The notes beneath the pieces are model-generated. The model did not search any database. It was not told where the DNA came from and worked only from the letters and a program-made list of their open reading frames with translations. DNA of 30,074 nucleotides, taken from an uncultured archaeon. GTDB lineage: Archaea; Iainarchaeota; Iainarchaeia; Iainarchaeales; DATDZZ01. Shown in pieces: positions 1 through 30,074 of the stretch. Numbering within the stretch: position 1 is the first letter of the stretch; the number at the start of each line of letters is the position of its first letter. Location of the stretch: positions 69,913 to 99,986 of the forward strand of contig CAYJVY010000005.1 in the NCBI GenBank assembly GCA_964373795.1. Direction: 5' to 3'. The translations under genes and the position numbers were made by a program.

Positions 1-19
1 CGCCGGCTGAACGGCGCGC
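1..19 (-). repeat. Edge-truncated copy of the GC-rich hairpin element family. Its terminal hairpin (CGCCG-GCTGAA-CGGCG) abuts the 5' end of tRNA-Met.
   Basis: nt 1-16 (cgccggctgaacggcg) are identical to 19093-19108. They match the reverse complement of 6643-6658 at 15/16 positions. The copy continues beyond the left window edge. Strand is given relative to copy A. Confidence 0.6.
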
Positions 20-91
20 GTCAGTGTAGTTTAGTGGCAGAACCCGTGACTCATAATCACGTGATCGGGAGTTCGAATCTCCCCACTGACA
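20..91 (+). tRNA. tRNA-Met (anticodon CAT). Elongator-like; could also be tRNA-Ile2 with a modified CAU.
   Basis: Hand-folded cloverleaf of 72 nt. Acceptor gtcagtg/cactgac, D stem gttt/gaac, anticodon stem cgtga/tcacg with loop ctCATaa, T arm gggag-ttcgaat-ctccc, discriminator A. No encoded CCA. G1-C72 and the lack of a GGG/CCC anticodon stem argue against an initiator. Confidence 0.9.
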
Positions 92-5002: not shown

Positions 5003-5124
5003 TGCCCCGACCGGGATTTGAACCCGGGTCTTCACCGAACTCCAACTCTTTGCTAATTTTTGCGAACTTTTTTATAAAAAGTTCTGAGAGGGTGACATCC
5101 TTGACCGGGCTAGACTATCGGGGC
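5003..5124 (-). tRNA. tRNA-Glu (anticodon CTC) with a 47-nt intron at 37/38
   Basis: Acceptor gccccga/tcggggc, anticodon stem tcacc/ggtga, loop ctCTCa|intron, T arm ccggg-ttcaaat-cccgg, discriminator A. Intron 5084..5038 contains a perfect 9-bp hairpin (gaacttttt-ata-aaaaagttc). Exact splice junctions were not verified by a BHB fold. Confidence 0.75.
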
Positions 5125-6566: not shown

Positions 6567-6640
6567 GGGGTTGTGGTGTAGCCTGGTTAGCATTCAAGCT
6601 TTGGGAGCTTGCGACCTCGGTTCAAATCCGGGCAACCTCA
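6567..6640 (+). tRNA. tRNA-Pro (anticodon TGG)
   Basis: 74-nt cloverleaf. Acceptor ggggttg/caacctc (one G-U), anticodon arm caagc-ttTGGga-gcttg, T arm ctcgg-ttcaaat-ccggg, discriminator A. Confidence 0.9.
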
Positions 6641-6779
6641 TTCGCCGTTCAGCCGGTGTGGCTGAAGCGATCAGCCGGCGAAGCTGAGTGCCCACGTGGG
6701 CATCGTGCTTGCCGCGCGAGACTACAGCTAAAGGCCGACATCGGCCTACGCGTTCGCGGGTGTGACCGCAAGGCAGAGA
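6641..6779 (+). repeat. GC-rich hairpin element, copy A. Candidate structured ncRNA or miniature mobile element.
   Basis: 90/139 G+C by hand count in an AT-rich context. It starts at the first nt after tRNA-Pro and ends 5 nt before the PAP2 ATG. Hairpins: 6648-6666 (ttcagcc-ggtgt-ggctgaa), palindrome TGCCCACGTGGGCA at 6689-6702, cgtgc-ttgcc-gcgcg, and aggccg-acat-cggcct. The 61-nt core 6679-6739 is 56/61 identical to the reverse complement of 19034-19094. Confidence 0.7.
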
Positions 6780-9306: not shown

Positions 9307-9356
9307 TAACTTTAATAAATTTATACAACTTAAAATTAATAAGGTTTAAGGAATAT

Positions 9357-9524
9357 CCCTCCTTAGCTTAGTAGCCAAAGCGTCCGGCTGTAGTTTAAGC
9401 CTTTTCTTTTGAAAAGAAAGTTTACGGCTTTCAAGCCGAGAATGTCAAATGCATTTAAAGTATGTTGGCATGCCGATTTAAAGCGGCGACCGGAAGACCC
9501 CCGGTGCAACTCCGGGAGGGGGGA
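9357..9524 (+). tRNA. tRNA-Tyr (anticodon GTA) with a 95-nt intron at 37/38
   Basis: Exons 9357-9393 and 9489-9524. C1-G72 acceptor ccctcct/agggggg, D arm gctt-agtagcca-aagc, anticodon stem tccgg/ccgga with loop ctGTAg|intron|a, 5-nt variable arm, T arm cccgg-tgcaact-ccggg. The intron has several local hairpins (cttttc-tttt-gaaaag; cggct-ttca-agccg; ggcatgcc). Confidence 0.85.
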
Positions 9525-9680
9525 CATTTTCATTTTTTGGACAAAGAGGTTTTAATAAATGAGAAAATACATTCCTCATTTCATGAAAAAAAAAGAACCT
9601 AAAAGAGAAGTAAAAAAAGAAGAAATAAAATTTAAAACTAGTATGTAAACACTTAAAGAATATAAACTAAATAGAGCTTA

Positions 9681-17543: not shown

Positions 17544-18668
17544 ATGCCTAGAATGGAAAGAATTAAAACTGCTTTAAGAAGGCTTGGAGAAAGGATTACT
17601 CCAGCAAGATTTAGAAAACCTGAAAATGCAAGAAGAGTAACAGATGTTTTAAGACAAACTGGTTTTAGGCCAAGAGGATGGTATAGTTTGTTTCAAAAAT
17701 TTGCTCAAACAGATTTTGCTAAAAGAATGGCTCAAGGAATTGGAGAAGTGCCACTTGGAGGAGCTCCATCTCTTTATGTATTAGATATTTTCTTAGTTGG
17801 AGGAAGCAAAAGACTGAGAAGAAAAGAGCTTTCAAAAGCCTTGAAAAAATTATTCATTGACAAGCCAGAGTTAAGAAAAAGACTTGTATTAGATGTATGC
17901 GAAGCATTATATGAAAACCATAAATTTTTAAAAGAAGGAAGTGAAGGAAGAGATTTTCCAATTTATGATAAAAGATTAAGGGAAACAGTTTATGCAACAT
18001 TTGATGAATTATATGACAAACTGCATGAAAAAGATGCAGACAGAAAAAGACATGAAGCAAGAGGAAAAGAATTTTTAAGAGAATTAGTAAGAGACATGCT
18101 TTCAGATCATGATTTTTTAATGAGAATTCCTTTAGGGGAAAGAGAGAAAAGAGTTAGAGCATTAGAACACGTATTAGGAGGACAAAGTGGAAGAATAAGA
18201 GACTATGATGTCAATCAAATTGATTTTGTTAGGGACTCTTTTGAAATATATTTGCCTTTACTAGAAAAATGTAAGAAATTTATTTCAGAAGCAGATAGAA
18301 TGACAAAAATCTTAGGAAACAGGACAAGAATTTATTATTCTTTAATGAAAATGCTTGCATTATCTGAAATAGTTTTACGTAATAATACTGATTTACTGGG
18401 ATTAAATTATCCTGCAAAAAATTTTGAAAAACTAGTGAAACCAGTTTTAGAAGCAAACGAAGAATCAATGGAATCAATTAGAAGGTTTCAAAAAATGTTA
18501 GTAGAAGGCCAAATTAGATTGCCTGAACCAGCTCCACAATTTAAATCCATGCATCCACAAGAGTTTACTGAAATGCAGTTCTTATCAGAACTAGTTAAAG
18601 ATCATTTAAATAAGATTAAAAGAAATGTTGCAGTAGAAGTATTACAAGGAATTGAGGTGAAAAAATGA
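17544..18668 (+). CDS. Hypothetical protein (about 375 aa), function unknown
   Basis: Long ORF. The TATA-like TTAAATATTTT at about 17507-17517 fits a leaderless ATG at 17544 (the track ORF starts at TTG 17517). Arg-rich N-terminus (MPRMERIKTALRRLGERI). Confidence 0.6.
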   Translation: MPRMERIKTALRRLGERITPARFRKPENARRVTDVLRQTGFRPRGWYSLFQKFAQTDFAKRMAQGIGEVPLGGAPSLYVLDIFLVGGSKRLRRKELSKALKKLFIDKPELRKRLVLDVCEALYENHKFLKEGSEGRDFPIYDKRLRETVYATFDELYDKLHEKDADRKRHEARGKEFLRELVRDMLSDHDFLMRIPLGEREKRVRALEHVLGGQSGRIRDYDVNQIDFVRDSFEIYLPLLEKCKKFISEADRMTKILGNRTRIYYSLMKMLALSEIVLRNNTDLLGLNYPAKNFEKLVKPVLEANEESMESIRRFQKMLVEGQIRLPEPAPQFKSMHPQEFTEMQFLSELVKDHLNKIKRNVAVEVLQGIEVKK

Positions 18669-18952
18669 AGAAACAAAAACTTCCTAGAAAAGAAAACAAG
18701 CCTTTAGGAGAAGAGGAAGAAGAAAAAGATATTTACAGTGAAAAAGGAGTTGAAGAAGAATTAGAAGACGATGAAATAACTGCAGAAGAAGCAGGATTCA
18801 TGGAAGGATACGATAACAAAGAATTAATTTGTAAAAACTGTGAAAACGAATTTGATTTAGAAAAAGCAATTGAACGCGACATTAAAGGCAAAGCATATTT
18901 GTTTTGTTCAAAGCATTGTGCCGAAATTTTTAGCAATAAAAACAAGAAATAA
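18665..18952 (+). CDS. Small acidic protein with a TRASH-like C-x2-C-x21-C-x3-C metal-binding domain
   Basis: CKNC ...21 aa... CSKHC matches the TRASH spacing. Poly-Glu N-terminal half. ATGA overlap with the upstream gene. Confidence 0.55.
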   Translation: MKKQKLPRKENKPLGEEEEEKDIYSEKGVEEELEDDEITAEEAGFMEGYDNKELICKNCENEFDLEKAIERDIKGKAYLFCSKHCAEIFSNKNKK

Positions 18953-18962
18953 AAAAAGAAAA

Positions 18963-19110
18963 TTCAGCCACGCTGGCTGAACTTGTCAGCTTCGCCGGTT
19001 GCAATGTCTTGTGCGTCGAGCACGAGGGTCAACGTCGTCCTTCAGCTGTAGTCTCGCGCGGCAAGCGCAATGCCCACGTGGGCACTCAGCCTCGCCGGCT
19101 GAACGGCGAA
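18963..19110 (-). repeat. GC-rich hairpin element, copy B (inverted relative to A)
   Basis: 19095-19110 is the exact reverse complement of 6641-6656. The core 19034-19094 is 56/61 identical to the reverse complement of 6679-6739. Palindrome TGCCCACGTGGGCA at 19071-19084. Hairpin ttcagcc-acgct-ggctgaa at 18963-18981. Lies between convergent genes. Confidence 0.7.
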
Positions 19111-19117
19111 AAGAGTT

Positions 19118-19828
19118 TTACTTTGAAACTCTTTTCTTTACTCCTTCAAATAATTGGTCGAATAATGCTTGGTTTTTAAGAGCTGCTTTAGAAATAGAGT
19201 CTTTCAAACCTAAACCCATTGCTAAACCAAATCCTAATCCAACTGCTACTACTATTGCTGCTACAAATAATTGAAGCAATTGAAGTAAACTGCTTACATT
19301 AATGTTTGGAAGAAACAAAGGTAAAGCAATTACTACAGCCAAATAAAATACTAACAAAGTAACTAGAACAGATAATTGTTTAACAAAAACAAAATGAGTT
19401 TGTTCTAATACTCTTTCAGCATACTTTGAGGCAACTGAAGCAAGTAATAACACAAGCAATCCTTGAACAAGTAAAGGAATATATCCAAGTACTTGTGATA
19501 CAATTACTACCAAATAGTTAACATTAACTAATTGCACTGCTGCTCCTAAGAATGCTAATACAATGTAAATATCAACTAAAATATGAATAACCCAGTTAAT
19601 GCTTACTCTACCAAAAGCTTCTTTTAATCCAACTGAATCAAAGAATTCATTTGCTTTGGATTTATTCAATAACCATGCTAAAACTTTATTCACTACAAAT
19701 GCTACAATTAATCCTAAAACAAAAAAAAGCAATAGGACTACAACTGCAGCAACTATTTGAACGCTTTGTCCAACAACAGCGTTCACAACACTTACCGGAT
19801 CTAATATATTAAAACCATGCGATGTCAA
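19118..19828 (-). CDS. Polytopic membrane protein (conserved-TM-helix / MscS-N-terminal-like, tentative)
   Basis: Repeated long hydrophobic helices. AGGAGG lies 9 nt upstream of the TTG start at 19828. Confidence 0.6.
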   Translation of the reverse strand: MTSHGFNILDPVSVVNAVVGQSVQIVAAVVVLLLFFVLGLIVAFVVNKVLAWLLNKSKANEFFDSVGLKEAFGRVSINWVIHILVDIYIVLAFLGAAVQLVNVNYLVVIVSQVLGYIPLLVQGLLVLLLASVASKYAERVLEQTHFVFVKQLSVLVTLLVFYLAVVIALPLFLPNINVSSLLQLLQLFVAAIVVAVGLGFGLAMGLGLKDSISKAALKNQALFDQLFEGVKKRVSK

Positions 19829-20635: not shown

Positions 20636-20768
20636 TTTGCCGACACGTCCGGCGAGTATGCGCACAGTCTTTGACTGAGCATGCTCACTTCGTTCGCTTG
20701 AAGCCACGCGCGATGAGCGCGAACAACGAGTATGAACAGCAGACGTTAGTGACATGCACAAGTAAGAA
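20636..20768 (+). repeat. GC-rich hairpin element, diverged copy C
   Basis: Collinear blocks shared with A and revcomp(B): TTTGCCG / CCGGCGAG / CTGAG+palindrome (TGAGCATGCTCA at 20686-20697) / CGCTTG..GCGCGA / ACAGC..GACGTT / GCACAAG. Terminal hairpin gccg-acacgtc-cggc. Lies about 50 nt upstream of tRNA-Asp. Confidence 0.55.
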
Positions 20769-20792
20769 GTTGTTTTAAGAAATTCTTTTTGT

Positions 20793-20819
20793 CAACTTTT
20801 TCTTTGAAAGAAAAAGTTG
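20793..20819. promoter_or_regulatory. 27-nt perfect palindrome CAACTTTTTCTTT-G-AAAGAAAAAGTTG ending 2 nt before tRNA-Asp
   Basis: 13+13 nt perfect dyad checked base by base. Function unknown (processing signal, terminator of the upstream element, or protein-binding site). Confidence 0.4.
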
Positions 20820-23862: not shown

Positions 23863-23909
23863 TTCTGTTTTGGCACAGCGTTTTTAAGGCGAATTGAGGC
23901 AATTTGTTT

Positions 23910-26297
23910 ATGGAAATAGAAAAACCCGAATTACTAGCTCCAGTAGGAAACAAAGAGCATTTATATGCAGCAATAAACAATGGAGCAGACGCTGTTTACT
24001 TAGGATTACAAGCATTTAATGCAAGAATTGGAGCAGATAATTTTTCAATGAAAGAATTAAAAGAAGCAGTAGATTTTGTTCACCTACAAAGAAAGAAAGT
24101 ATACATAACATTTAATACTTTGTTAAACGATTTAGAACTCCCACTTGTTTTGGATTTGGTTAAACAGGTTTACGAAATAGGAGTTGATGCATTAATTGTT
24201 CAAGACTTGGGATTAATTTTTGCTGTAAGAAAACTTTTGCCTGAAATGGAATTGCATGCTTCAACTCAAATGACTGCACATAATTCTTTAACTGTAAAGT
24301 TCTTGAAAGAATTAGGAATTAAAAGAATTATTTTAGCAAGGGAAAATTCATTGCAAGAAATTAAAGAAATCAAAAACAAAACACATGCTGACTTGGAATG
24401 CTTTGTTCACGGAGCAATCTGCATTGCTTATTCAGGGCAATGCACTGTTTCAAGTCTTTCATTTAAACGCTCTGGAAATAGAGGCAGATGTGCTCAAAAC
24501 TGTAGACTAAACTATAATTTGGTTGGCAATGGAAAAGCATTAAAGCATGGTTATTTAATTTCTGCAAAAGATTTAAATGCAGTTGAATTAATTCCTGAAC
24601 TAATTAAGGCAGGGGTAAACTCGCTTAAAATTGAAGGAAGAAAAAAATCAACTGAATACGTTGCAATTACAACAGCTGTTTACAGAAAAGCAATTGATTC
24701 ATATTTTGATTCAAACATTAAAGTAAGTGAAGAGGATTTAAAGGCATTAAAAGTAGCTCATGTAAGAGAATTCTCTTCAGGACATTTTAAAGGACAAAAC
24801 AATGAATTAGTTAAAGAAGATTTTCCTGGAAAACAAGGACTAGAAATTGGAAAAGTTTTATCACAAAAAGATGGAGTTACAAAAATCAAACTAGTAGAAG
24901 AATTGCTTGCTTGGGAAACGCTTGCCGTAAAACAAGGCGGAGAAAGAATGGAATTCAAGGCAAGAGAACTTTACAAAAACAATCAAGAAATTGACAAAGC
25001 TTTTGCTGGAAGCATTGTTGAATTACATATAAAAGACAAACTCTTGCCAGGGCAAATTGTTTTCAAAATCCAATCCAGAAAGCTAACCAATTTTGCTTAT
25101 GCCAGTATTACGCGAGTAAAAAAAATTCCAGTAAAATTTCTTGTAACAGCAAACAATAAAGAATTCAAGTTAAAAGTTTTCGACAAAGACACAGTTGTTG
25201 AAATTGTTTCAGATTTTGTGCCAAAAAAAGCAGTAAAAGGTTTGGATAAAAAAGTCTTGGAAGAAAAAATTTCCAAAACAGGAAACACATTACTTGAATT
25301 ACAAGAAATAGAAATAAAATTAGAAGAAGAATTACTGTTACCATTCAGCAAGGTAAATGATTTACGTAGAAAAGCAGTTAACGCATTTAAAGAAAAAAAA
25401 TTAGAAAAATTCAGAAAAAAAATTGATGAAGAAATTTTTGCCAAAGAAAAAGAAAAATTATTCAAAGAATCAGAAGACAAAAAATTCATTGAACTCATGG
25501 AAGGCATACCGGGAAAACAAAAATTTGAGATATGCATTGGAAGCAAAAACCAATTACAAAAAACACTTGAATTAAATCCGTTTAGCATTGTTTTGCCTTT
25601 GCATTGGAGCATTGAAGAACTTGTTTCAATTCAAGAATTACTGAATTCCAAAAAAATAACTCCAATTATTAGCACTAACGCAATACTGAAGGATTCAGAA
25701 TTAGATTCCACTTGTAAAAAACTTGAAGAATTGCGTTGCAATGGAAACATTTTTGTTGAATGCAATAATCTTGGCCTCTACAAGTATTTAGTTGACAATG
25801 GCTTTCCAATAATTGTTGGACAAAACATGAATTCATTCAACTCTGTTGCTGTAAACTTTTTTGCGGAAAACTCAATGGCTGTTACTCTTTCAAGAGAACT
25901 GAATTTTAAACAAATTGAGTTATTGAGAAAAAGAACTAATGCATATATAGAGCTTGCATTATTTGACTTGCCTGAAATAATGCTCATAGAGTCAAACATT
26001 TTAAAGCAATTCAATGTGCCCAAAAAAAAAGCAATTCTTATTGATAGAAAAAATTGGAAATATTTAATTAAAACAGATGAATTTAACAGAACACAGTTAT
26101 TCAACCCTGTTTACTTGAACATGATTCCTGAATTAGAGAAATTCCAAAACTTTGCTGACATCCTTAAAGTAAATGTTTCTGATTTATCTGACAATGAAGC
26201 CTTTAAAGTCTTAGACTCATTAAAAGAAAAGCTTTCAGGAAAAAAAGCATTCATTTCAACAGCATTTACTCGTGGATCTTATGAAAAAGGAGTTTAA
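23910..26297 (+). CDS. U32-family protein, long form (RlhA/YdcP-like architecture)
   Basis: PELLAPVGNKEHLYAAINNGADAVYLG N-terminus. U32 signature ECFVHGAICIAYSGQCTVS plus NRGRCAQNC Cys cluster. About 400-aa C-terminal extension. A TTG at 23904 is possible. Confidence 0.85.
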   Translation: MEIEKPELLAPVGNKEHLYAAINNGADAVYLGLQAFNARIGADNFSMKELKEAVDFVHLQRKKVYITFNTLLNDLELPLVLDLVKQVYEIGVDALIVQDLGLIFAVRKLLPEMELHASTQMTAHNSLTVKFLKELGIKRIILARENSLQEIKEIKNKTHADLECFVHGAICIAYSGQCTVSSLSFKRSGNRGRCAQNCRLNYNLVGNGKALKHGYLISAKDLNAVELIPELIKAGVNSLKIEGRKKSTEYVAITTAVYRKAIDSYFDSNIKVSEEDLKALKVAHVREFSSGHFKGQNNELVKEDFPGKQGLEIGKVLSQKDGVTKIKLVEELLAWETLAVKQGGERMEFKARELYKNNQEIDKAFAGSIVELHIKDKLLPGQIVFKIQSRKLTNFAYASITRVKKIPVKFLVTANNKEFKLKVFDKDTVVEIVSDFVPKKAVKGLDKKVLEEKISKTGNTLLELQEIEIKLEEELLLPFSKVNDLRRKAVNAFKEKKLEKFRKKIDEEIFAKEKEKLFKESEDKKFIELMEGIPGKQKFEICIGSKNQLQKTLELNPFSIVLPLHWSIEELVSIQELLNSKKITPIISTNAILKDSELDSTCKKLEELRCNGNIFVECNNLGLYKYLVDNGFPIIVGQNMNSFNSVAVNFFAENSMAVTLSRELNFKQIELLRKRTNAYIELALFDLPEIMLIESNILKQFNVPKKKAILIDRKNWKYLIKTDEFNRTQLFNPVYLNMIPELEKFQNFADILKVNVSDLSDNEAFKVLDSLKEKLSGKKAFISTAFTRGSYEKGV

Positions 26298-27259: not shown

Positions 27260-28525
27260 CTACCAATCAATTTGAATTAATTGATGAGTGTTATTTTCAT
27301 GCAAAGGTTTTTCTATTACAAATAATTTGTCGTTCTCGCGAACGCGTTCATTTACTTTTAAAGCAATTAAAGCTCCTTTTTTTGCTGACTGAATTGCTTC
27401 ATTGCTTACTTGAATTGATTCAACTTTTTGCCTAAAAAACCCAGTAGTATCTCCAGTAATCATTACATCTTGATTTAATTCTAAGTTCCCTGCTTCTAAT
27501 AAAATTTCTGCAACAGAAATTTTTCTGTAAAACTTTTTCACTACTCCAATATAACGTTTTTGCTCTGTTGCTTTCGAACCATAAGTTGCACTCCAAGAAT
27601 CTAAAGGTTGCCCTAAAAAATGCCCTGAAGAAAAACCTCTATTATAAACTCTTTCCAAACGAGAATGCAATTCTTTTTTTAATTCAAAAGAATAACGATT
27701 TTCTTGAATTGCATTTAATGCTTCACGATAAGCATTCACTGTTTCAAACACATAGTCTGCGGAGCGAGCGCGGCCTTCAATTTTAAATACATCAATTCCT
27801 GCTTCAACTAATTTGTCAACAAAATCAATTGTTGAAAGATCTTCAGGAGACATAATGAAATGATTTTCAATCTTCAATTTATTTCCTTCATCATCTGTAA
27901 CAGTATAAGCTCTTCTACAGTTTTGCACGCACTCTCCTCTATTCGCAGATTTACCTGAAGTAAAATGACTCATAAAACATCTTCCAGAAACTGCAACACA
28001 TAATGCTCCGTGAACAAAGCATTCAATTTCAATTAATCTTCCATTAGGGCCTTTCACGTTTTCTGCAATAATTTTTTCTTTAATGTTTTTAATTTGCCCC
28101 AAGTTTAGCTCTCTTGCAAGAACAACTCTGTCAGTGAATTGAGAAAAAAACTTTAATGCTTCAAAATTTGCAATGTTTTGCTGAGTAGAAATATGCACTT
28201 CCAAGCCTAGCTCGCGAGCCTTGCGAATAACAGCTAAATCTGAAACAATTACTGCATCAACCTTTGCTTTTGCAGCTTTTTCTAAGATTTCATTCATTAA
28301 AGGAAGATCTGAATCAAAGATAACTGAATTCAATGCCAAATATGCTTTCACTTTGCTTGAATGACATTGTTTTACAACTTTAGGCATTTCTTCAAGTGAA
28401 AAGTTTTTTGCTCCTCCTGCACGCATGTTTAGAAAACCTATTCCAAAGTAAACTGCGTCCGCTTTAGCTTTAATTGCTGCACTTAAAGATTCAAACGATC
28501 CAGCTGGAGCCAATAATTCAATCAT
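27260..28525 (-). CDS. U32-family protein, short form (YegQ/TrhP-like architecture)
   Basis: MIELLAPAGSFESLSAAIKAKADAVYFG. Signature ECFVHGALCVAVSGRCFMS plus NRGECVQNC. 421 aa. Confidence 0.88.
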   Translation of the reverse strand: MIELLAPAGSFESLSAAIKAKADAVYFGIGFLNMRAGGAKNFSLEEMPKVVKQCHSSKVKAYLALNSVIFDSDLPLMNEILEKAAKAKVDAVIVSDLAVIRKARELGLEVHISTQQNIANFEALKFFSQFTDRVVLARELNLGQIKNIKEKIIAENVKGPNGRLIEIECFVHGALCVAVSGRCFMSHFTSGKSANRGECVQNCRRAYTVTDDEGNKLKIENHFIMSPEDLSTIDFVDKLVEAGIDVFKIEGRARSADYVFETVNAYREALNAIQENRYSFELKKELHSRLERVYNRGFSSGHFLGQPLDSWSATYGSKATEQKRYIGVVKKFYRKISVAEILLEAGNLELNQDVMITGDTTGFFRQKVESIQVSNEAIQSAKKGALIALKVNERVRENDKLFVIEKPLHENNTHQLIQIDW

Positions 28526-29014: not shown

Positions 29015-30074
29015 GTGTTAAAAAAAATAAGTTTTTTATTTTTTATACTAATTTTAAGTTCTTTTGCTAGTGCATTAACCCCTCCAACTATAAGCATTTC
29101 AACAGATGTAACTGAAGTGCAAGCAGGAGGAAAAATAACTGTAAGCGTTACAGGAAAAGACGATAAAGGAATTGGCTTGCTTTGGTGGCAGGGAAATGCA
29201 ACAGGAATTACAGAGCTTGACACAAAAAAAGAATCTCCTTGCAGTATAAATCCTTGTACACTTAAATGGCCTATAACAATTCCTTCAACAGCTAAAGCTG
29301 GAACATATGTATTGAAAGGATATGGATACGATAATGAAAAAATTCAAGGAATTGAAGCCTCAACAAAAATCACTATTACAGCTGCAAGCACTAGCACTAC
29401 TTCTACTACAACAACTGATGGCCCTCCAACTGTAACAATTTCAGTAGACAAAACAAGTGTATTAGTTGGAGAAATTTTTACAATAAATGTAACAGGAAAA
29501 GACGATGTTGGACTGAATATGATTTGGTGGTATGGAGATGCAACACCAGATGCAAACCTTAACAGAGCAACAACTACTTCTTGTAATAGTGCAACAACTT
29601 GCAGTTCTAAAACAACTATTTCAACTCAAATTCCTGGAACATTCAAATTCGGAGCAAACTCTAGAGACACATTATATGGAACAACTACAGGAATAGGAAA
29701 ACCACATCAAGCATCTGAAAATACAGGATTAGGAGGAGGATTGCAATTTGTTACTGTAACAGTAAACAAACCAACTTCAAGTTCCATTGTTGGAGCAAAT
29801 TGTTTAAACGGAGTAAAAGATTACGATGAAACAGGAATAGACTGCGGAGGAGCATACTGTAAAGCCTGTACTACAACAATTGATTCAAATAAAACTACTA
29901 CAACAGATTCAAATAGAACTACTACAACAACAATTGATTCAAATAAAACAACTTCAACTTCTCCTGGAGCAAATTGTTTAAACGGAGTAAAAGATTACGA
30001 TGAAACAGGAGTGGATTGTGGAGGAGCATACTGTAAAGCCTGTACTACAACAATTGATTCAAATAAAACTACTA
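29015..30074 (+). CDS. Large secreted surface protein (partial, continues past the window end): duplicated roughly 110-aa domain plus Thr-rich linkers and repeated Cys-rich modules
   Basis: Not in the ORF track because no stop is reached. GTG at 29015 follows an in-frame TGA at 29006-29008. Signal peptide VLKKISFLFFILILSSFASA. Two paralogous domains (PPTISISTD..ITVSVTGKDDKGIGLLWWQGNAT / PPTVTISVD..FTINVTGKDDVGLNMIWWYGDAT). Modules GANCLNGVKDYDETG[IV]DCGGAYCKAC. Confidence 0.75.
   Translation, partial: MLKKISFLFFILILSSFASALTPPTISISTDVTEVQAGGKITVSVTGKDDKGIGLLWWQGNATGITELDTKKESPCSINPCTLKWPITIPSTAKAGTYVLKGYGYDNEKIQGIEASTKITITAASTSTTSTTTTDGPPTVTISVDKTSVLVGEIFTINVTGKDDVGLNMIWWYGDATPDANLNRATTTSCNSATTCSSKTTISTQIPGTFKFGANSRDTLYGTTTGIGKPHQASENTGLGGGLQFVTVTVNKPTSSSIVGANCLNGVKDYDETGIDCGGAYCKACTTTIDSNKTTTTDSNRTTTTTIDSNKTTSTSPGANCLNGVKDYDETGVDCGGAYCKACTTTIDSNKTT
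29792..30074 (+). repeat. 174-nt (58-codon) tandem repeat inside the surface-protein gene
   Basis: 29792-29900 and 29966-30074 are near-identical (differences only in ata gac tgc versus gtg gat tgt). The shorter ACAACAATTGATTCAAATAAAAC linker motif recurs between them. Confidence 0.85.

Follow-up and report, generated by a model that had tools for sequence, protein, structure and literature searches.

Hairpin arrays between genes of an AT-rich archaeal window

The window analysed here is a 30,074-nt stretch of contig CAYJVY010000005.1 with a G+C content of 31%. Its archaeal nature is indicated by open reading frames (ORFs) with TrmB, HVO_2833_C and DUF2666 domains, by a tRNA gene with a 48-nt intron at positions 5003–5124 of the minus strand, and by a second, unannotated gene for tRNA-Tyr with an intron of about 96 nt. 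Two GC-rich islands of the window, designated arrays A and B (62–65% G+C), are located in spacers between genes, and a third, copy 0, is truncated by the window start (Table 1). Array A follows the gene of tRNA-Pro and precedes that of a PAP2 protein, and a convergent ORF (18665–18952) ends 10 nt from array B. A and B each consist of four to six short, GC-rich hairpins in succession. Together with arrays from a second genome, described below, they show that the building blocks are hairpin modules of 15–40 nt, which are joined head to tail into arrays of 140–400 nt, and that individual arrays are different mosaics of a pool of modules.

Arrays A and B are related in sequence. As the initial annotation had reported, A and the reverse complement of B have an identical 16-nt terminus, TTCGCCGTTCAGCCGG, and a 61-nt core with 56 identities; the ungapped similarity of the two extends over 89 nt at 85% (6668–6756 and 19017–19105). 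The same annotation had described a 14-nt palindrome, TGCCCACGTGGGCA, and the hairpins CGTGC-TTGCC-GCGCG and TGCGC-TTGCC-GCGCG, which are present, and a recount of A yielded the same G+C number (90 of 139). The sequence CGCCGTTCAGCCGG occurs three times in the window and had no matches in 100 dinucleotide-preserving shuffles. The common terminus of A and B is formed by the module TTCAGCC-N5-GGCTGA(A/G), with which a second palindrome, CGCCG...CGGCG, overlaps. This terminal module is found twice in A, at both ends of B, and in copy 0. Relative to B, array A contains an extra 22 nt near its 5′ end, which correspond to a second, partial duplicate of the terminal hairpin module, and the single 5′ module of B aligns with module copy 2 of A, not with copy 1. 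Of the two 3′ hairpins of A, B retains the first in degenerate form and lacks the second.

The island at positions 1–19 had been interpreted as a cut copy. It is indeed a third copy in the reverse orientation, and its hairpin CGCCG...CGGCG ends 3 nt short of the 5′ end of tRNA-Met. The Logan contig L002, from another run, lengthens copy 0 by 14 nt to GCGCGCCGTTCAGCCGGCGTGGCTGAAGCGATC (reverse complement), and the extended copy matches the A-type 5′ end at 29 of 30 positions. The proposal of four copies of a ~140-nt element holds in that copy 0, A and B are a true repeat family, but its fourth member, island C, is unrelated, and the repeated unit is the short hairpin module joined into mosaics, not a sequence of ~140 nt. 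The idea that copy 0 and A are inverted repeats flanking a 6.6-kb genomic island was dropped because the synteny of DUF2666 and PAP2 spans the position of A in relatives.

The window starts within a copy, and the breaks of short-read contigs fall in arrays, which could be taken as signs of an assembly artefact or of foreign GC-rich contamination spliced into the contig. However, the junctions of the arrays with flanking AT-rich genes recur in independent Logan assemblies from three runs, and the conserved module recurs in four independent assemblies of another genome, so that the chance of an artefact is practically negligible. Breaks of Logan contigs inside arrays are expected for repeats or palindromes. 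An exact protein look-up along the source contig returned only short Logan contigs, which end in arrays. The organism is present in samples ERR3478686 and ERR4904390/1.

Table 1 Positions of arrays, their parts and adjoining tRNA genes in the window
Feature	Position	Strand	Description
Copy 0	1..19	-	A-type array truncated at the contig/window edge; 5′ end only
tRNA-Met(CAT)	20..91	+	Copy 0 at its 5′ side; no A+T-rich promoter-like sequence within ~33 nt upstream
tRNA-Pro(TGG)	6567..6640	+	Only tRNA of the window without a T-run directly behind; array A there instead
Array A	6641..6779	+	139 nt, 65% G+C, six tandem hairpins
Array A borders			Start 2–3 nt past tRNA-Pro (6567–6640); end 5 nt ahead of the PAP2 ATG (6785)
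Alternative hairpin	6643–6658	+	CGCCG-TTCAGC-CGGTG; overlaps module copy 1 of A
Module copy 1 of A	6648..6666	+	TTCAGCC-GGTGT-GGCTGAA
Module copy 2 of A, degenerate	6670..6687	+	ATCAGCC-GGCGA-AGCTGA
Core common to A and B	6689..6719	+	Perfect palindrome TGCCCACGTGGGCA, then hairpin TCGTGC-TTGCC-GCGCGA
3′ hairpins of A	6732..6771	+	AGGCCG-ACAT-CGGCCT, TCGCGG-GTGTGA-CCGCAA
3′ module of B	18963..18981	-	TTCAGCCA-GCG-TGGCTGAA, then TTTTCTTTTTTTA; flagged as terminator-like on the minus strand
Array B	18963..19110	-	148 nt, 62% G+C (92/148)
Array B borders		-	Start ~8 nt past the stop codon of the co-oriented ORF 19118–19828; module hairpin and T-run at the end
5′ module of B	19083..19105	-	CGTTCAGCC-GGCGA-GGCTGAGTG
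Island C	20636..20768	.	53% G+C; ~52 nt upstream of tRNA-Asp

Module sharing, mosaic structure and turnover of the arrays

The scan of 185,579 species-representative genomes for GCCGTTCAGCCGGYGNGGCTGA gave twelve matches, seven of which are single chance ones in GC-rich bacteria; the other five belong to the AT-rich metagenome-assembled genome (MAG) 'archaeon SMAG_U8205' (34–35% G+C). The core pattern GTGCCCACGTGGGCAYNNNGCTTGCC had no matches in GTDB genomes, and the arrays of the window are absent from the searched genome collection. Four patterns applied to viral contigs yielded nothing relevant and one chance match in a contig with 63% G+C. The scan of metagenomes returned two near-identical orthologues of SMAG_U8205 loci in JGI contigs and three chance matches in GC-rich contigs. 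Spurious ORFs did not lead to more copies, since no candidates with a translated array were found, and none by the exact look-up of seven ORFs overlapping arrays. The sequence read comprised 30 kb of the window genome and ~60 kb of SMAG_U8205. The closest named relatives of the topoisomerase VI subunit A (TopoVI-A) of SMAG_U8205 are in Micrarchaeota and Diapherotrites, which places this MAG in the DPANN group. The genes of topoisomerase VI subunits B (1084 aa) and A (858 aa) of SMAG_U8205 (L031 6746–12577) contain inteins with LAGLIDADG domains, as does the MCM gene of the same contig.

The module CGCCG-TTCAGCC-GGCGA-GGCTGA is 100% identical between array B and SMAG_U8205 over 23–28 nt. In SMAG_U8205 it occurs five times, with completely different GC-rich hairpins behind it and sometimes also ahead of it, and it can head an array, sit inside it, or occur in it twice. 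The arrays of SMAG_U8205 are 170–400 nt long. The all-versus-all comparison identified blocks of 20–107 nt with 92–100% identity that are common to six of them and vary in order and combination, with inversion in a few cases. The conserved module is the only array module common to the window and SMAG_U8205; the compared loci have no genes in common, and the tRNA-Met genes of the two are of different types. Since they share a single module and the window arrays are absent from the searched collection, the window and SMAG_U8205 are different genomes, although not demonstrably distant ones.

One hairpin type retains the apical sequence GRA-TCYN-TYC, while the stem below it covaries, with five of eight pairs changed on both sides. 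Its covariation score is 0.51, compared with 0.19 in shuffles, and none of 500 shuffles reached 0.51; the covariation is nevertheless overstated because the copies were chosen for pairing. The kept apex above a covarying stem is compatible with protein recognition of the hairpin.

In SMAG_U8205, the direct repeat TTAGGCACCAGG stands on both sides of three arrays; it is absent from the window and could be a part of the element, a specific target site, or a terminal redundancy. The (G)TTAGGCACCAGG sites are located at L007 971–982 and 1189–1200, and at L012 6574–6585, 6782–6793 and 7704–7715, one copy having a single mismatch. They contain GTTAGGC, which fits the integron core-site consensus GTTRRRY, but they are in direct orientation and without cassettes. 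An integron attC site requires inverted core sites R''(RYYYAAC) and R'(GTTRRRY) around an imperfect hairpin of 55–140 nt between gene cassettes. The attC identity was rejected, because GTTAGGC is direct at both ends of the three SMAG_U8205 arrays, gene cassette and integrase are lacking, and the motif is absent from the window. The arrays are also not of the CRISPR type, which has identical repeats spaced regularly by unique spacers, as they have no periodicity and their hairpins are unlike one another and directly abutting.

The arrays differ between related genomes and strains. At the locus of A, DUF2666 and PAP2 are adjacent in the relatives L023 and L026, and in L024 tRNA-Pro comes after DUF2666 with no array behind it, while in the window both tRNA-Pro and array A sit between DUF2666 and PAP2. 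The trailer of tRNA-Pro opens with ...CTCATTC in L024 and in the window, and the conserved sequence of A begins directly past the TTC. Relatives of SMAG_U8205 with 67–68% identical TopoVI-A (38–45% G+C) have no array behind that gene and no module copy in 17–23 kb. Between two 98% identical strains, a 56-nt indel removes the last hairpin module and the following T-run. Two 99.5% identical strains have 16 differences: three are in a 170-nt array, the ~1 kb of ORF upstream of it is free of them, and the remaining 13 are in another ORF, several at a 3-nt spacing. The arrays evolve near neutrality, at about the synonymous rate. The presence and absence in relatives, the strain indel and the substitutions between strains indicate that the arrays are lineage-specific, are gained and lost by module, and are without strong sequence constraint.

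In three cases, an array ends 2–3 nt from a mature tRNA end: copy 0 borders tRNA-Met on its 5′ side, A borders the 3′ end of tRNA-Pro, and the L014 array that of tRNA-Ala. A fourth array is ~30 nt from a tRNA, and the starts of two arrays (B and that at L003) are at a stop codon or at most 10 nt from one. Ends of tRNA genes account for three of the seven gene boundaries abutted by arrays, compared with ~17% expected (binomial P ~0.1); this enrichment at tRNA borders, from a rough count, is suggestive, not significant. Insertion at such positions would be harmless, since RNase P, RNase Z or a terminator removes or tolerates the array.

Strand signal, RNA classes and origin of the arrays

The initial annotation had argued from C/U differences in the stems of A and B that structure is maintained on the A(+)/B(-) strand. 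All four one-sided stem changes between A and B do give G-U pairs on that strand, an outcome with a chance of about one in eight, because the strand was chosen after the fact. The signal is gone in the larger sample of 46 distinct hairpins from ten arrays, with 11 G-U and 10 A-C cases. The RNAalifold consensus of A and B has an energy of −27.4 kcal/mol in the sense and −24.5 kcal/mol in the antisense orientation, the latter with G-U-compatible changes of its own, and neither strand has a compensatory pair. Individually, A and B fold moderately better than shuffled sequences on both strands (z-scores of −2.6 sense and −2.9 antisense for A, and −1.9 and −1.4 for B). Since the C/U argument is unsupported and modules also occur inverted, the stem changes do not demonstrate a structured transcribed RNA, although the arrays may give rise to one. 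A single-stranded DNA intermediate, which had been put forward as well, is a reasonable guess by analogy with repetitive extragenic palindromic (REP) elements only.

Array A is very probably transcribed on the plus strand as a trailer of tRNA-Pro and leader of PAP2, because there is no room for a promoter before PAP2, and PAP2 in relatives is the second gene of an operon after DUF2666. The PAP2 start codon, 5 nt past A, is conserved (MVF...). Copy 0, which is antisense to tRNA-Met, replaces the promoter-proximal region of that gene; its transcription, opposite in sense, would yield a leader removed by RNase P. The L012b array is antisense between two co-directional genes. The orientation of array transcription thus seems to be dictated by the neighbouring genes.

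Searches with Rfam 15 at gathering thresholds identified only tRNAs in the window. Together with seven further loci at gathering thresholds, and at E ≤ 10 on A, B, C and one SMAG_U8205 array, the matches were limited to tRNAs, 5S rRNA and chance ones. The best permissive match to A, B and C was chrB-a, with 14.5–21.2 bits against a threshold of 43.9, and the rest were chance matches to miRNA and lncRNA families. The statement that the elements fit no known RNA family is therefore upheld at gathering and permissive thresholds alike. The C/D boxes are not in a workable order, as had also been stated, because CUGA (box D) is present and UGAUGA, part of the box C consensus RUGAUGA, is absent. In A, the only ACA of a potential H/ACA RNA falls within a predicted helix, and Rfam gave no snoRNA-type match. 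Hammerhead and other small ribozymes were rejected in the absence of an Rfam match and, by eye, of a CUGAUGA...GAAA core. A kink-turn in the CGAG...CGAAGA hairpins of the SMAG_U8205 arrays was rejected by eye too, because Watson-Crick pairing of TC with GA leaves only a GA/GAA internal loop.

The relationship of the arrays to tRNAs was evaluated separately. ARAGORN labels the first 72–80 nt of arrays as 'tRNA-Leu(taa)' (L003 5731–5810, L014 3677–3748, L018 1040–1119 and L031 12575–12654). Such calls at the start of three related arrays, and the location of arrays beside tRNA genes, would favour tRNA-derived or tRNA-like elements, either resembling short interspersed nuclear elements or pseudo-tRNAs. 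This explanation is extremely unlikely and effectively refuted, as the Rfam tRNA model RF00005 does not match the ARAGORN-called array starts even at E ≤ 10, and the consensus sequences of the T-loop and D-loop are both missing. Neither ARAGORN nor Rfam calls A or B, in agreement with the initial view that they are not tRNA-like. The ARAGORN calls on arrays are a systematic false positive, which could inflate tRNA counts in such genomes.

We consider the chances about even that A, B and copy 0 belong to a new archaeal family of interspersed, non-coding, GC-rich palindromic mosaic repeats of AT-rich DPANN genomes, similar to the REP elements and bacterial interspersed mosaic elements (BIMEs) of Enterobacteria and Pseudomonas, which are associated with REP-associated tyrosine transposases (RAYTs), HUH Y1 enzymes whose genes are flanked by REPs. 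Like REPs and BIMEs, whose palindromes measure 20–40 nt, the arrays are composed of short GC-rich imperfect extragenic palindromes (46 distinct hairpins with stems of 5–10 bp, all in intergenic spacers), are often located at 3′ ends of genes or between convergent genes, and are mosaics of several palindrome types with linker motifs. Both groups lack terminal inverted repeats and target-site duplications, vary between strains, and are transcribed within neighbouring mRNAs. The arrays differ in their archaeal (DPANN) host, in their greater length of 6–15 hairpins, in their position directly against tRNA genes, in the extreme contrast of 55–65% G+C with 31–35% of the genome, and in having modules that are mostly direct and only occasionally inverted instead of alternating in orientation.

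Based on this similarity, a mechanism of array formation can be proposed. Intergenic spacers would receive DNA-level copies of single modules or of blocks of them. The copying probably involves hairpin-forming single strands and a trans-acting enzyme, by analogy with REPs and RAYTs, and/or recombination between arrays. The CGCCG-TTCAGCC-GGCGA-GGCTGA module, kept between the two genomes, is the best candidate for a recognition site of such copying machinery. Insertions would persist where they are harmless, which is immediately outside the mature ends of tRNAs, where RNase P or RNase Z removes them, and just past stop codons. The arrays would then be passively transcribed as leaders, trailers or untranslated regions (UTRs) in either orientation. 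As a secondary effect, the stable hairpins may stop exonucleases or contribute to the ending of transcripts, as those of REPs and BIMEs do.

Several observations weigh against a REP/BIME-like origin. The sequence read from the two genomes contains no transposase, RAYT or IS200/IS605-type gene, and a domain scan of 20 window ORFs detected no transposase domain. Terminal inverted repeats and a consistent target-site duplication are both lacking; the TTTTC on the two flanks of B is a weak indication, given the AT-rich genome. The two large REP superfamilies have a conserved GTAG or CGTC tetranucleotide at one palindrome end (PMC3733652). These tags are missing from the array modules by eye, and a single CTAC is present in a linker of A (6723–6726). 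REPs and BIMEs reach tens to hundreds of copies per genome; the arrays counted in the sequence read were three in the 30-kb window, seven in ~42 kb of SMAG_U8205 selected by pattern and therefore biased, and one in 22.6 kb of its unselected sequence. Furthermore, modules within an array have mostly one orientation, whereas REPs alternate within BIMEs, five of six arrays have a co-oriented upstream neighbour, a T-run on the 'sense' strand ends four of six, and sense folds are slightly more stable in eight of ten. The last four features would also fit selection at the RNA level.

Such selection would be expected if the arrays were genuine structured small RNAs encoded on the A(+)/B(-) strand and released from co-transcripts with tRNAs or mRNAs, for example by RNase Z after tRNA-Pro; they might function as a protein scaffold or sponge of repeated hairpins. 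Structural RNAs classically stand out as GC-rich islands of AT-rich genomes, A starts 2–3 nt past the discriminator base of tRNA-Pro, and B is in a sense 3′ UTR and ends with a hairpin and a T-run. The one-sided stem changes between A and B, the strong covariation of one hairpin type, the T-runs, the co-orientation with upstream genes and the slightly better sense folds agree with this explanation, as do, by eye, purine-rich 'sense' loops (GCAA, UGAAA and the GA/GAA internal loop, the last with flanking stems that differ between copies). A precedent is provided by the dicistronic tRNA-sRNA (small RNA) precursors of Nanoarchaeum equitans (PMC3491384), in which, as in A, a GC-rich structured sequence directly follows a tRNA in a DPANN archaeon and RNase Z would make its 5′ end. 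Unlike these sRNAs, the arrays have no placeable C/D and C'/D' boxes or kink-turn, they are repeated and mosaic, and other copies are upstream of tRNAs or convergent to them. The missing Rfam match, the lack of a compensatory pair between A and B, with an antisense fold about as good, and the equal G-U and A-C numbers across the family also speak against small RNAs. Copy 0 is antisense to the only plausible transcript that covers it, the leader of tRNA-Met, the L012b array is antisense between co-directional genes, and inverted modules occur. The mosaic content varies by locus and strain, evolution is near neutral, and the fold z-scores of −1.9 to −2.6 are modest. We regard small RNAs, the main alternative, as rather unlikely.

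Alternatively, the arrays could be cis-acting hairpin clusters selected in place, which end or insulate transcripts or stabilise RNA ends beside tRNA genes with high transcription and between convergent genes of a compact genome. Arrays B and L007 are between convergent genes, the L012a and L014 arrays adjoin convergent tRNA genes at their 3′ ends, B closes with a terminator-like hairpin, and tRNA-Pro has A in place of the T-run of other tRNAs. Archaeal termination needs oligo-T, not hairpins. PAP2 requires read-through of array A, so that this array cannot terminate transcription efficiently, which weakens this explanation. Near-identical blocks at unrelated loci and the lack of arrays in relatives indicate copying, not independent local evolution. 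Although hairpin clusters have been proposed as terminators in bacteria (PMC8355165), we consider local selection for a cis-acting role quite unlikely. It is very unlikely that a dimeric regulator or a site-specific recombinase binds TTCAGCC-N5-GGCTGAA as double-stranded DNA, with the other hairpins incidental. The 7-5-7 geometry of this palindrome is typical of dimer sites, and the module is kept between genomes in sequence, not just in structure, with no covariation in the stem. However, it is always found within long GC-rich hairpin arrays, behind genes and beside tRNAs and not in promoters, and its overlap with the palindrome CGCCG/CGGCG is a layout more typical of folded single strands.

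We speculate, with low confidence, that the arrays are products of an unknown archaeal mobile-element system, or else modular hairpin RNAs freed by tRNA processing to act as multivalent protein-binding scaffolds; either is unlikely. As mobile elements, hairpin cassettes could be copied precisely to the edges of tRNA genes, with the 23–28-nt module CGCCGTTCAGCCGGCGAGGCTGA as the recognition site, and the hairpin-rich tRNA introns of related genomes might have the same origin.

Other repeat systems resemble the arrays in part. The GC clusters of yeast mitochondria are short GC-rich mobile palindromes in intergenic spacers of an AT-rich genome; they belong to several classes and are polymorphic between strains. 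They appear to be the nearest analogy in genome ecology, but they are organellar, consist of single clusters of 30–60 bp instead of long mosaics, and have no sequence relation to the arrays. BOX elements of Streptococcus pneumoniae (boxA-boxB(n)-boxC) and Rickettsia palindromic elements are modular or palindromic repeats of AT-rich genomes with stable RNA structures; the arrays lack the fixed module order of the former and the in-frame insertion into genes of the latter. Miniature inverted-repeat transposable elements, like the arrays, are small, non-coding, multi-copy, intergenic and capable of forming hairpins. The arrays are modular, have no terminal inverted repeats bracketing a unit, no consistent target-site duplication and no related insertion sequence element: A has neither type of repeat, and B has a palindromic module at both ends and only the TTTTC flanks.

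In the literature examined, REP/BIME-type palindromes are treated as bacterial, and no archaeal or DPANN counterpart is described. If the REP/BIME-like family is confirmed genome-wide, hairpin repeats of a selfish or semi-domesticated kind persist and are shuffled even in archaeal genomes that are ultrasmall, streamlined and AT-rich. The arrays would explain assembly breaks beside tRNA genes in such genomes, and they warn annotators of false tRNA calls and of spurious ORFs over GC-rich islands. The conserved motif of 23–28 nt offers a handle for finding the copying enzyme. The heuristic that a GC-rich island in an AT-rich genome is a structured RNA gene is tempered, as it need not be one.

Island C and neighbouring features

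Island C had been listed as a diverged copy, but no similarity of it to A, B, related arrays or any fetched sequence was detectable. It gave no Rfam hit and folds no better than shuffled sequence (z-scores of −1.6 and −0.8). Several short palindromes are present in it, including GAGCATGCTC and CGCGC-GATGA-GCGCG, and the Logan contig L022 ends within it. Judged by its sequence, island C is a GC-richer island and not a member of the A/B family. Downstream of it, the AT-rich palindrome CAACTTTTT-N(3-7)-AAAAAGTTG (20790–20816, plus strand) ends 2–4 nt ahead of tRNA-Asp. The same palindrome occurs at L003 149–167, L008 6809–6827 and 6904–6922, and L031 18105–18237; in SMAG_U8205 it is located directly ahead of tRNA-Cys and also recurs before short GC-rich stretches close to the 5S rRNA gene. 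It resembles a shared TATA-like palindromic promoter element of tRNAs with little or no leader.

The unannotated tRNA-Tyr(GTA) of the window (9356–9526, plus strand) has its ~96-nt intron (roughly 9394–9489) at the canonical position 37/38. It was missed by ARAGORN and Rfam and found through the similarity of its exons to the homologous tRNA of relatives, whose intron is roughly 120–190 nt long and rich in GC hairpins (L025 1377–1634 and L024 10891–11078). The tRNA at 5003–5124 is found by Rfam (50.9 bits) and not by ARAGORN; it is apparently tRNA-Glu(CTC) from comparison with L023 and L024, and its intron of ~48 nt is AT-rich. At L023 76–300 (JGI Ga0366824_1000596), an intron-containing tRNA is followed by a ~110-nt trailer with three hairpins, closed by the stem TGCCTTTTT/AAAAAGGCA. 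The tRNA-Tyr intron of L025 (roughly 190 nt) and the L023 trailer are thus further hairpin-rich sequences in dispensable portions of tRNA precursors of relatives; neither shares sequence with A or B.

Two peptidase U32 paralogues of the window are in opposite orientation (23904–26297, plus strand, and 27260–28525, minus strand) and contain a 48-nt stretch of 77% complementarity (24389–24436 and 27984–28031). The end of the window (29791–30074) is occupied by a 110-nt direct repeat with 96% identity and a spacing of 174 nt, together with shorter ACT/ACA-rich repeats, and probably encodes a Thr-rich repetitive protein.

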